Shown here: positions 13,848 through 17,893 of the stretch, in pieces
How the letters are laid out: every line of letters begins with the position of its first letter
Numbering within the stretch: position 1 is the first letter of the stretch
Assembly (NCBI GenBank): GCA_951406725.2
Contig: OX597827.1
Span: 72,664,001 to 72,728,000 of the forward strand
Source: Octopus vulgaris
Taxonomy: Eukaryota
Length of the DNA: 64,000 bases
Direction: 5' to 3'
Notes under the pieces: generated by a model
Databases searched by the model: none
Seen by the model: the letters and a program-made list of their open reading frames with translations, nothing else
What the model was told of the DNA's origin: nothing
Program-made: the position numbers and the translations under genes

Positions 13848-15260
13848 TGCTCTCCGGCTTTTCAACTCTTTCTCCTTTCCTCCCGGCTCCTCCAAAATCC
13901 TTTTTACTATGGACATCCAAAGCCTCTATACTGTTATCCCTCACCACGAAGGACTGCAGGCCCTTCGACACTTTCTTGACCTCCGCTCTAACCCTGTACC
14001 TGACACCTCCACACTCATTCGTCTGGCCGAACTTGTCCTTACTCTGAACTGCTTCTCGTTCGCGGGCGAGTTCTACCATCAGGTCTCGGGAGTGGCCATG
14101 GGAACGCGAATGGGCCCCAACTATGCGAACTTGTTCGTTGGCTATGTTGAGGCCCAAATATTCTCTAATTTCACTGGTCCCACTCCTGAACTATATGGTC
14201 GTTATATTGACGACATTATCGGTGCCACCTCACTCTCCCGCGAACATCTAGATTCCTTCCTCTCTTTCGTCCAATCTTTCCATCCAGCCCTCCACTTCAC
14301 TTCCACTATCTCCAACACCTCTGTCTCCTTCCTCGACATTTCGGTTAGCATTCTTCACTCCACTCTTACCACCTCCATTCACTACAAACACACAGACTCA
14401 CACTCATACCTCAACTTCTCTTCCTCCCACCCAGAACACACCAAGCTTTCCATCCCCTATTCCCAATTCCTCCGTCTACGTAGGCTCTGTAGTGACGACC
14501 ATGACTTTGAGACTCAGTCTCAACGTATGGCTCACCACTTCACCCTACGTGGATACCCCCTCACCACTATCCACACCGCCCTTGCCAGAGCACGGTCCGT
14601 GGACCGTGTATCTGCTCTCTCTCCCCGAACCCGCCCTGTAGTCTCCCGCCTCCCTTTTCCCCTCACTTACCACCCCACGAACCTACGTCTCCAACGCACC
14701 ATTCTTCGAGCTTTCCGTCATCTCCAGTCCGACCCGTCCACTTCACACCTGTTCCCTAACCGACCCCTCCCCTCTTTCAAACGAGCCCACAACCTTCGAG
14801 ACCTTTTGGTCCATAGCTCCTTCCCTGACCCTACCTCCCAACCCGGCTCGTTCCCCTGCTCCCGCCCACGTTGCCGCACTTGCCCTTACCTCTCCAACAC
14901 CACCCGCCTCACTAGCACCCACCATCGACCCTATCCCATCATCCACTCCTTCACCTGCACCTCCAGCAATATTATCTATTGCATCTCTTTTGCTCTCTCT
15001 GCAATTCCTTGTACATCGGACAAACGGGACGCCGCTTGGCTGACCGGTTCGCGGAACACCTTCGTGACATCCACCTTGCGAACGACACACCGGTCTCACG
15101 CCATTTCCGCTCCACCGGTCACTCCTTGCAACACCTATCTGTGTTCGGTTTGTCCTTACACAGAGGCCATCCGGATTCCCATTTGCGCCGTGAACAGGAA
15201 TTAATCTTCTCTCTTCGCTCTTATACGCCATTTGGTCTCAACTCTCCCCCCTCCTCATCT
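13848..15260 (+). mobile_element. Penelope-like retroelement, 5'-truncated: reverse transcriptase plus GIY-YIG endonuclease with a frameshift near 14990
   Basis: MDIQSLYT, QVSGVAMG, RYIDD and FLD RT motifs; C-x4-C-x2-C linker; NIIYCIS continues in another frame as CSLCNSLYIGQTGRRLADRFAEH. Confidence 0.93.
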
Positions 15261-15550
15261 AACCTCACCCCCTCCTCACCTATCCTTTCTCCCCCCGACC
15301 CCTACTTCTTCAGTCCTTCATCCTTTCACCCCTACTCCCCTTCCCTTCTTCCCTCTTTCTCCCTCCCTCTTCCCCTTCCCTCTGCTCCCTCACTCCCTCT
15401 CTCCCCTTCTCCCTCTTTCCTCCTTCATCCCCCTCATCCCCTTCCTTCTCCCCCATCCTCTCCTCCCCCTTCTCCTCCCCCTCTTCTTCCCCTCCCCTTC
15501 TCTCCCCCCTCTTCTCCCCTCCCCCTCTTCTCCCCTCCCCCTCTTCTCCT
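15240..15550. repeat. CT-rich low-complexity tract
   Basis: Seen directly. Confidence 0.9.
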
Positions 15551-15767
15551 CACTACACCACATGACTTTACACATCACATCACATATGATGTGCCATACT
15601 AATACACACACCAATACTAATATGGCATTTTTATAAAAATAAGAATAAAGCTGACCGCTTATTAGCTCCATGAGGCCATCGCCTTAAGTTAGCTATTTGA
15701 TACACAAACTGTATCCATATAACCTTTGAACAAGGGAGGTCAGTCGCTCCACACTACTTGGCCGGCA

Positions 15768-15808
15768 GCTACAGACGCTTTCGGGGTATTGCCCCTTTTC
15801 AATGCAGC
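15768..15808 (-). ncRNA. Type I hammerhead ribozyme (U3-A8 core variant; stem III 1 nt short)
   Basis: GCTGCA-TTGAAAA-GGGGCAATACCCC-GAAA-GCG-TC-TGTAGC. Confidence 0.65.
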
Positions 15809-16277
15809 GTAGCCAAACCAGTAGGTGTCGCTTCTGACAATCTCTGTTCAAAGGTTTTATTTACCTAGCTTCGGTGGAATACATCCACTTGTTTTCAATA
15901 ATAGAAATATTAAAATTACTAAGTCTCTCTAAAAGAGAACAACGGCAGCGTTCCCGGAAAATATTAGTTATCGCCATACTAATATGGCATTTTTATAAAA
16001 ATAAGAATAAAGCTGACCGCTTATTAGCTCCATGAGGCCATCGCCTTAAGTTAGCTATTTGATACACAAACTGTATCCATATAACCTTTGAAAAAATGCC
16101 ATATTAGTATGGCGATAACTAATATTTTCCGGGAACGCTGCCGTTGTTCTCTTTTAGAGAGACTTAGTAATTTTAATATTTCTATTATTGAAAACAAGTG
16201 GATGTATTCCACCGAAGCTAGGTAAATAAAACCTTTGAACAGAGATTGTCGGAAGCGACACCTACTGGTTTGGCTAC

Positions 16278-16319
16278 GCTGCATTGAAAAGGGGCAATAC
16301 CCCGAAATGCGTCTGTAGC
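16278..16319 (+). ncRNA. Type I hammerhead ribozyme (U3-A8 core variant)
   Basis: GCTGCA-TTGAAAA-GGGG CAATA CCCC-GAAA-TGCG-TC|TGTAGC; stems I and II pair. Confidence 0.75.
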
Positions 16320-16603
16320 TGCCGGCCAAGTAGTGTGGAGCGACTGACCTCCCTTGTTCAAAGGTTATATGGATACAGTTTGTGTATCAAATAGCTAACT
16401 TAAGGCGATGGCCTCATGGAGCTAATAAGCGGTCAGCTTTATTCTTATTTTTATAAAAATGCCATATTAGTATGGCGATAACTAATATATATATATATAT
16501 ATATATATATATATATATATATATATATATATATATATATATATATATATATATATATATATATATATATATATATATATATATATATATATATATATTA
16601 TAT

Positions 16604-17370
16604 ATACTACAAAATTAGAGAATGGAGAAACATACTTAAATCAGTAAAACATCAACTATCCGATGATACTCAATCCATACTTTAATACACCATTACATAT
16701 GAGTAAAGGCAATATATAAAATGAAATGAGATATACAGTAATAGTAAAAGTAAAAATAAAAAGATAAAGAGATATAAGTAAAAATTTCAAATATAATATG
16801 CAAATAAATCAAAACTGACAGCTGTTTCGGCAGTGAGGACAGTCATACCTCATTTAACCTATAAGCCATAAAGGCAGGTATAAATGAGGCATTAACAAGG
16901 ATGCCCCACGGCCTCTTCAGAGAATTAAATTAAATTTGTTATAATAGTGAAAAATATTATATAATCATATAAATATAAATATAAAAATATAAAAATGTAA
17001 AATATAAAAACTTATACATCATAATGCTACACTTATATAATATAATACACATTTGTACAAAAAGGAAGGTAAACAGAACAAAATATATAACAGTGTATAT
17101 ATTAATATTAATAAGTACCGATATTATACATATTTGATGTTGATGTTTTACTGATTTAAGTATGTTTCTCCATTCTCTAATTTTGTAGTATTAATTTACG
17201 GTAATATTATTACCTTTACCCATTTAATACAATAGATGAACTGATTGCTTGACAATTTTTAACATCTATGTATTAATTTTGTTGGGTACCTATCTAGCAG
17301 TATATTGGATATATATTATCCCATGGTGGGTTGAATTTTCAACCCCTATCTCATTTTATAACCTATATTA
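16604..17370. mobile_element. Hammerhead-bearing element with ~50-bp internal inverted repeat, between (TA)n tracts
   Basis: 16604-16655 is the reverse complement of ~17138-17191. Confidence 0.65.
16811..16926 (-). ncRNA. Type I hammerhead with long stem II
   Basis: CTGAAGA-GGC...(~85 nt self-complementary)...GCC-GAAA-CAGCTG-TC; stem I imperfect. Confidence 0.65.
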
Positions 17371-17612
17371 TATATATATATATATATATTTGAGTAATTG
17401 AATGAATTATCTTATTAAGGATAATTCGAAAGATAACCGATACCTGGGTAGCAAATTCACATCAGAACTCTTGAACCTTTAGAAACTTCTAGATTCTTCT
17501 ACATTCAGCCACTCTGACGTCACTCATTATAAAGAGACACTCATTATTGCCATAGGCTCCTTGAGAGCGGTCAGCTAAAAGTTTTTTGTGCATTTTGATG
17601 TCGACATAAGTT

Positions 17613-17707
17613 CCTTGATTTTCCTGATGAGAAATCTGCATAATGTACTCCTTATTCCTTCGGAATTAGGAATATGCAGCCTTCGAAACATATGTCGAGA
17701 ATAAAGG
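17613..17707 (+). ncRNA. Canonical type I hammerhead within a ~360-bp monomer (17390-17752) flanked by (TA)n
   Basis: CCTTGATTTTC-CTGATGA-GAA...TTC-GAAA-CATATG-TC|GAGAATAAAGG; all three stems pair. Confidence 0.85.
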
Positions 17708-17893
17708 ATATTTGTTAACTAGTCGTTCAACTCCATTCTTTCATATACTTATATATGTATATATATATATATATATATATGTATATTCAACAATCATTAA
17801 GGGGTGCATCAAGGTGCATTTTGTGCCCTCTTGCTACAGCCATGTCAGTAATCACTATATAAACCCAAGAATTGTATCTGGGTAGTTACTTAC

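Follow-up and report, generated by a model that had tools for sequence, protein, structure and literature searches.

We analysed a 64,000-nucleotide stretch of the Octopus vulgaris genome (assembly GCA_951406725.2, contig OX597827.1, positions 72,664,001 to 72,728,000 of the forward strand; hereafter the window), in which four unrelated young mobile elements, all of known kinds, are piled into one TA-repeat region (Table 1). These are P1, a truncated Neptune-type Penelope-like element (PLE), the non-coding hammerhead retrozyme A, and B and C, the inverted ends of two further coding PLE families. The hotspot is genuine but composed of known parts, and we favour, at a probability of roughly 70%, a reading in which the region consists of separate recent insertions into TA repeats and A is copied in trans by a two-ended Penelope enzyme of the B or C kind rather than mainly by that of P1.

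Table 1. Components of the stack, in window coordinates (RT, reverse transcriptase; SINE, short interspersed nuclear element; pLTR, pseudo-long terminal repeat)
Feature	Position	Strand
SINE with tRNA-like head (label by eye) and short tandem 3' tail; fifth element of the stack, TA-biased	13507-13807	-
(TA)20 tract where P1 is 5'-truncated	13808-13848	.
P1, coding part of 5'-truncated Neptune-type PLE: RT, CX4CxxC linker, GIY-YIG with CCHH	13849-15260	+
P1 pyrimidine-rich 3' region, stopping roughly 600 nt short of the normal end	15261-15613	+
P1/A junction within 9-11-nt microhomology, without TA, single in the genome	15605-15622	+
Retrozyme A left arm, about 1.3 units; U3-A8 hammerhead core 15802-15774	15614-16095	-
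Retrozyme A right arm, hammerhead 16284-16313, terminating at fixed End 1	16092-16488	+
(TA)57 tract between A and B	16485-16603	.
B, pLTR of Hydra-type PLE, proximal end 16604; long-stem-II hammerhead 16920-16817, weak stem I	16604-17136	-
B inverted arm, terminating at distal (tail) end	17139-17363	+
TA tract separating B from C	17364-17389	.
C inverted arm, terminating at distal (tail) end	17390-17467	-
C, pLTR of second Neptune-type PLE; hammerhead 17624-17696; proximal end	17465-17752	+
TA tract closing the stack	17753-17786	.

Hammerheads were located by motif descriptor rather than by Rfam, a scan of the window returning no hammerhead family among 87 matches at E<=1. The descriptor finds hammerhead-shaped motifs in A (both arms), B and C, and in a stricter form gives seven distinct matches in the window versus 0-2 in eight shuffles. 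An earlier note on this DNA had placed three hammerhead elements at 15614, 16604 and 17390, each delimited by (TA)n; the motifs are present in all three, but only A fits an independent ribozyme RNA, B and C being ends of coding PLEs, and the tracts (13808-13848, 16485-16606, 17364-17389 and 17750-17786) lie as described except on the left of 15614, where A joins the P1 3' untranslated region (UTR) directly. The eight further hammerhead positions listed for the window all abut (TA)n (8/8), and four of them (8978, 40148, 42005 and 42492) pass a relaxed descriptor; the other four fail, 39925 being a homologue of the 40148 family, 33655 and 33690 carrying partial hammerhead cores by eye, and 35190 yielding nothing. 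From the broader proposal, that a shared TA-targeting Penelope machinery mobilises many non-autonomous ribozyme RNAs, the TA targeting and a Penelope-type mobilisation of A are retained, and one machinery shared by many such RNAs finds no support in this stack. Contigs from four sequencing runs cover A, and none among those listed spans the stack, which is uninformative either way; the runs listed include none recorded as RNA.

P1 and the coding families B and C

The RT and GIY-YIG frame that had been read from the sequence was recovered at 13849-15260, where it matches RT and, weakly, GIY-YIG; in a long P1 copy RVT_1 scores above cut-off and GIY-YIG under it, with the motif visible. The frame had been thought to start inside (TA)n, a view we abandon: the other 29 of 30 copies extend upstream, so the window P1 has lost its 5' part up to a point within the RT, where the TA tract adjoins, and the frame simply reads on through the TA. 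These 29 loci, returned from a search of the 2.8-Gb genome, share 99.4-99.6% identity across 1,410 nt and pass from the 3' UTR into a pLTR with its own hammerhead and on to one fixed end, followed by (TA)n. The pLTR, with its hammerhead (core CUGUUGA, an A6U variant) and partial tandem structure, is absent from the window copy, whose terminal portion is replaced by A. A 2-nt frameshift near 14986, before the nuclease, is likewise private to the window copy (1/30 copies).

Longer members of the family, whose reconstruction the earlier note had recommended, can carry long frames as well as this pLTR: of five that were fetched, two are open over about 1,050 codons and show DKG, CX4CxxC and CCHH motifs. 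A CX2-5CxxC linker and a CCHH motif occur in the translations of both P1 and C, and the motifs of P1 are those of the Neptune/Nematis pattern of PMC8557442, on which its putative Neptune-type label is based. With 5,826 exact-motif matches genome-wide, older relatives included, P1 is the most abundant family and, judged by its sequence, very young. It has a single fixed 3' end, with an inverted arm at 0 of 30 loci. By position, 19 of 30 of its 3' ends pass the TA test; the closest copies all end in TA, and the ends that fail belong mostly to older relatives, in which the alignment broke off early. In one copy (L130:6700-7100) the frame runs past the nuclease without a stop into a length-variable pyrimidine-rich tract, which yields a proline/serine-rich tail.

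Elsewhere in the genome, both B and C sit joined, upstream, to RT/GIY-YIG frames, and neither is an RNA without a linked open reading frame (ORF) of its own. The top matches of B come as pairs 5.6 kb apart, and the intervening DNA encodes an RT and a nuclease with the Hydra-clade motifs RW, DKT, YRDD, CxCX5C, CxxC and CxH and no CCHH, although the 5.6-kb unit departs from the short (<3 kb), single-intact-ORF organization of that clade. Pfam returned nothing matching the two frames of B, which are broken in the four copies fetched, and its stem I is only 2 bp. Three site-spanning B copies share a frameshift in a C run in the RT thumb region (L121:3925-3960), which may be an assembly error, a shared lesion or a programmed shift. 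Upstream of C, a second Neptune-type frame shares about 26% identity with P1. In B as in C the 3' ends fall at two fixed points, and an inverted insertion combines one proximal with one distal end; the window copies obey this pairing and are accordingly 5'-truncated inverted ends of coding elements.

Retrozyme A and its insertion footprint

Retrozyme A is a non-coding, tandemly repeated unit of 363 nt in the 43% GC range with one type I hammerhead, within the 170-400 nt that characterize retrozymes, and its exact 20-mer occurs 1,249 times in the genome. Its predicted fold is far stronger than that of shuffled sequences (z -7.4, 0/100). The predicted hammerhead has a U3-A8 core with position 7 free and lies within a long helix, in which four of 44 pairs are changed on both sides, two of them separating the subfamilies, a count drawn from related sequences and few independent events. 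Fold and paired changes together fit the conserved secondary structure around the ribozyme that is expected of such elements. We also considered a 13-nt antisense match between A and the P1 pLTR as a guide signal and rejected it, as 2 of 300 shuffles equal it, it was one of 12 comparisons, and it is altered in the older A subfamily.

The footprint of A was read from two samples, of 63 insertions by position (all 60 matches listed on the first contig and three on the second) and of 60 insertions of the older subfamily (the first 60 new sites listed, the last four omitted). None of these 123 by-position insertions has a linked ORF of its own. Copies are dispersed and 94-99% identical, with unrelated flanks and variable 5' truncation, and many are twin-armed (39/63, and 33/60 in the older subfamily, a count that is too low as some small arms were overlooked). 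Twin arms end at two fixed priming sites, one per arm: among insertions with both ends standard, all 32 of the first sample and 28 of 30 of the older subfamily pair End 1 with End 2 (60/62), with one non-standard end in seven further twin-arm insertions of the first sample and three of the older. A shared 12-14-nt string, its length including microhomology to the element, flanks 10 of 11 twin-arm sites outside pure microsatellites.

Of 205 arms of A, 101 are longer than one unit, 157 cross the predicted cut site and 33 cross it twice or more; 5' breakpoints are not enriched at that site (7/205, p=0.10). As arms run round the unit and their 5' breakpoints show no peak at the cut site, the template was likely a circle or an uncut multimer. 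Two junctions (L390:1440-1500 and L394) lie at or within 2 nt of the predicted cut site, an anecdotal hint of cleavage that the breakpoint count does not support. The 5' ends are often joined to unrelated non-TA DNA (19/24; older subfamily 15/27), including Helitron-like and long interspersed nuclear element (LINE)-like sequence (labels by eye). In one insertion (L227:2588-2720) about 130 nt of unrelated DNA lies between the two arms, possibly through a template jump, and some older copies (L391, L398, L406) sit in (TTA)n instead of (TA)n.

Enrichment of element ends at (TA)n, which the earlier note had expected genome-wide, was borne out: 87 of 102 A 3' ends in the first sample and 66 of 93 in the older subfamily adjoin TA (one end off its locus and one masked were scored as misses), as do 29 of 30 for B, 25 of 30 for C and 29 of 29 for D, a family of the wider window, against 4 of 29 for a control SINE and a background of 2-7.5%. 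TA runs beside A are also longer (median 35 nt vs 16 nt), and other PLE-type sequence lies within 1 kb of 14 of 63 A loci and 0 of 29 control SINE loci (p=0.004). If placement were uniform, the whole genome would be expected to hold about 1e-5 stacks of four families, a figure built on exact-motif counts that undercount diverged copies; family pairs close together on one chromosome (4 vs about 1.5 expected) are too few to weigh. The stack is an expected outcome of several TA-seeking elements.

Carrier of A and competing explanations

Three candidate carriers are represented in the stack and differ in a scorable way, P1 being one-ended and B and C two-ended. Head-to-head hammerhead pairs were found in 1 of 97 clusters of P1, 26 of 69 of B, 21 of 77 of C and 13 of 60 of A, and the inversion frequency of P1 differs from those of A, B and C at p from 1e-5 to 8e-11. 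Because A inserts like B and C and unlike P1, P1 is probably not its main carrier. In the mechanism we envisage, a GIY-YIG nuclease would make two nicks in a TA-rich site, one per strand and about 12-13 nt apart, and each free 3' end, aided by a few bases of TA-like microhomology, would prime reverse transcription at one of the two fixed internal RNA sites, for A probably on a circular or uncut multimeric template, after which the two cDNAs would be joined head to head. Each insertion would leave long TA flanks, likely attracting the next.

Several observations weigh against this assignment. Sequence comparison links A significantly to neither the B nor the C pLTR, and its tail of 63 nt is much shorter than that of B (about 170 nt) or C (about 160 nt); given these differences in sequence and tail length, the carrier may be another, unsampled family. 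Two of the five fusions described below, those of the window and of locus L222, join A to P1, argued here not to be the main carrier, and the palindromic helix III is altered in both window copies of the predicted A hammerhead. The frameshift shared by three B copies, together with a C frame read only in its 3' part, makes the current autonomy of both families putative. Inside TA, duplications of P1, B and C could mostly not be read; informative ones numbered one or two for C and none for B. The SINE at 13507-13807 also favours TA (20/29 3' ends, 16/29 5' ends), so that lying next to TA is not enough to point to a Penelope carrier; this minus-strand SINE is young, 300 nt long, with ordinary short duplications by eye, and ARAGORN found no tRNA in it. 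Finally, the start site reported in the accessible parts of PMC11167929 lacks homology to the cut DNA and any difference between strands, whereas here there is a pairing rule and TA-like microhomology.

The strongest competitor draws on five TA-free fusions of A to PLE-type sequence, two with P1 (window and L222), one with C (L115), one B-like (L223) and one D-like (L390). These may be template switches or deletions; in this competing view A would be a promiscuous passenger copied by several families (P1, B-like, C and D-like), each fusion being a single event in which one RT complex used both RNAs, an explanation we regard as possible but doubtful. Every direct TA-free fusion found involves A, and fusion of two coding PLE families was seen at 0 of 356 partly overlapping loci, although many long copies of P1, B and C extend at their 5' ends beyond the loci screened. 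The best case for a template switch is suggested by L222, where both outer ends are natural and TA-primed and the internal join shows only 2-nt homology at a non-standard A position. Fusions nevertheless make up only 3 of the 123 by-position insertions, and the second sample of 60 includes none to P1, B or C. Because A 5' ends so often meet unrelated non-TA DNA, the fusions by themselves are no proof of co-templating; a deletion at a TA tract that both elements share would look much the same. At the window junction, priming from a resected P1 end, or a later deletion preserving the end-pairing rule, explains the structure as well as a template switch does. A pattern search for further P1/A junctions at the 13-nt antisense motif gave no matches, and a second pattern, poorly drawn in that it missed the window's own junction, gave one unrelated match.

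In its most specific form, which we offer tentatively and would not bet on, A would be a circular RNA parasitising several unrelated Penelope enzymes, with one dimer priming both strands of a 12-13-nt staggered cut at two fixed RNA sites, and with one arm sometimes taken from the circle and the other from a Penelope mRNA. If so, the fused insertions would document physically, for the first time, the copying of a retrozyme by named Penelope families.

Much less probable is movement of all three hammerhead elements as non-autonomous RNAs by the TA-targeting enzyme of P1 alone. This family is the most abundant and very young by its sequence, has long open frames in two of five copies and is fused to A twice, and the B copies read carry frameshifts; B and C, however, belong to RT-encoding families, which largely refutes the proposal for these two, and the one fixed 3' end of P1 and its lack of inverted loci (0/30) are unlike the two ends and frequent inversions of A, B and C. 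Spread of A in the manner of a satellite, with no reverse transcription and through amplification at the DNA level or recombination between TA tracts, is highly improbable: A does form short tandem arrays, and local tandem amplification is discussed in the accessible parts of 10.64898/2026.07.22.740005, but its dispersed 94-99% identical copies with unrelated flanks and variable 5' truncation, two fixed 3' ends, strict end pairing and 12-14-nt duplications all speak against this route. We retain copying by a two-ended, B- or C-like Penelope enzyme as the preferred reading.

Neighbouring elements and relation to known systems

Further repeats were observed across the window. Family D (8978-9180, 39926-40420 and 42005-42180) comprises hammerhead-bearing pLTR-like ends of about 200 nt that resemble those of P1 and have variable 5' ends. 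A second tandem unit of about 360 nt at 42494-43300 (minus strand), with CCGACGA-core hammerheads at 42703 and 43063, begins at a TA tract and is probably another retrozyme. Two small TA-flanked families, one an inverted repeat, lie at 33300-33884 and 35094-35176, with partial hammerhead cores by eye that fail the descriptor. A 5S rRNA-like sequence at 18834-18952 (minus strand) scores above the Rfam gathering score and is a pseudogene or a 5S-derived repeat, a 147-bp satellite array with higher-order periods occupies 4645-8081, and repeated matches spaced about 3.65 kb across about 46000-62000 suggest a large tandem duplication.

A preference for TA has been published for the Neptune, Naiad and Hydra clades, octopus families included, and a (TA)n preference is given for Hydra-1_Obim in the PMC8557442 supplement. 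Inverted copies and tails are described for PLEs in the accessible parts of PMC8557442 (Craig et al. 2021). Relative to the Neptune-clade elements treated there, our two families diverge from one another, P1 having a single 3' end and almost no inversions and C two ends and frequent inversions. Like the Hydra-clade elements, B has the clade motifs, a hammerhead and (TA)n insertion and lacks CCHH, but its 5.6-kb unit, with asparagine-rich inserts, compares with under 3 kb for most Hydra families described there, and it differs from Hydra-1_Obim (compared by eye).

The closest biochemical parallel is the Poseidon PAc protein, of a clade other than those of P1, B and C, which according to the accessible parts of PMC11167929 (Frangieh et al. 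2024) cuts and extends both strands in purified form and starts at two internal sites. The likeness extends to the definition of a 'tail' by the two RT starts and to AT-rich targets. A literature search, to which subscription papers were mostly not open, returned no report of an end-pairing rule or of PLE-retrozyme fusions. P1, A, B and C form a concrete set of substrates for asking in vitro which of the enzymes uses which RNA as its template and what gives rise to inverted Penelope insertions.

That PLEs carry animal retrozymes is a published hypothesis, proposed in PMC7229834 (Cervera and de la Pena 2020) and in 10.64898/2026.07.22.740005 (Li, Clavereau and Pollet 2026), as far as their accessible parts show, from shared ribozymes, co-occurrence and pLTR similarity. 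Retrozyme A resembles the metazoan non-LTR (long terminal repeat) retrozymes in its non-coding, strongly folded tandem unit and single type I hammerhead, and differs from them in its U3-A8 core, a type of core known from Schistosoma PLEs (PMC4209133), in having no detected pLTR parent, and in its dispersed twin-armed TA insertions, which the accessible accounts of published retrozymes do not describe. Here a retrozyme itself bears the Penelope integration footprint, in that each arm uses one of two fixed priming sites and 12-14 bp are duplicated. Ultimately, the lasting value of the locus lies in this testable footprint, which ties a retrozyme to Penelope-type twin priming.

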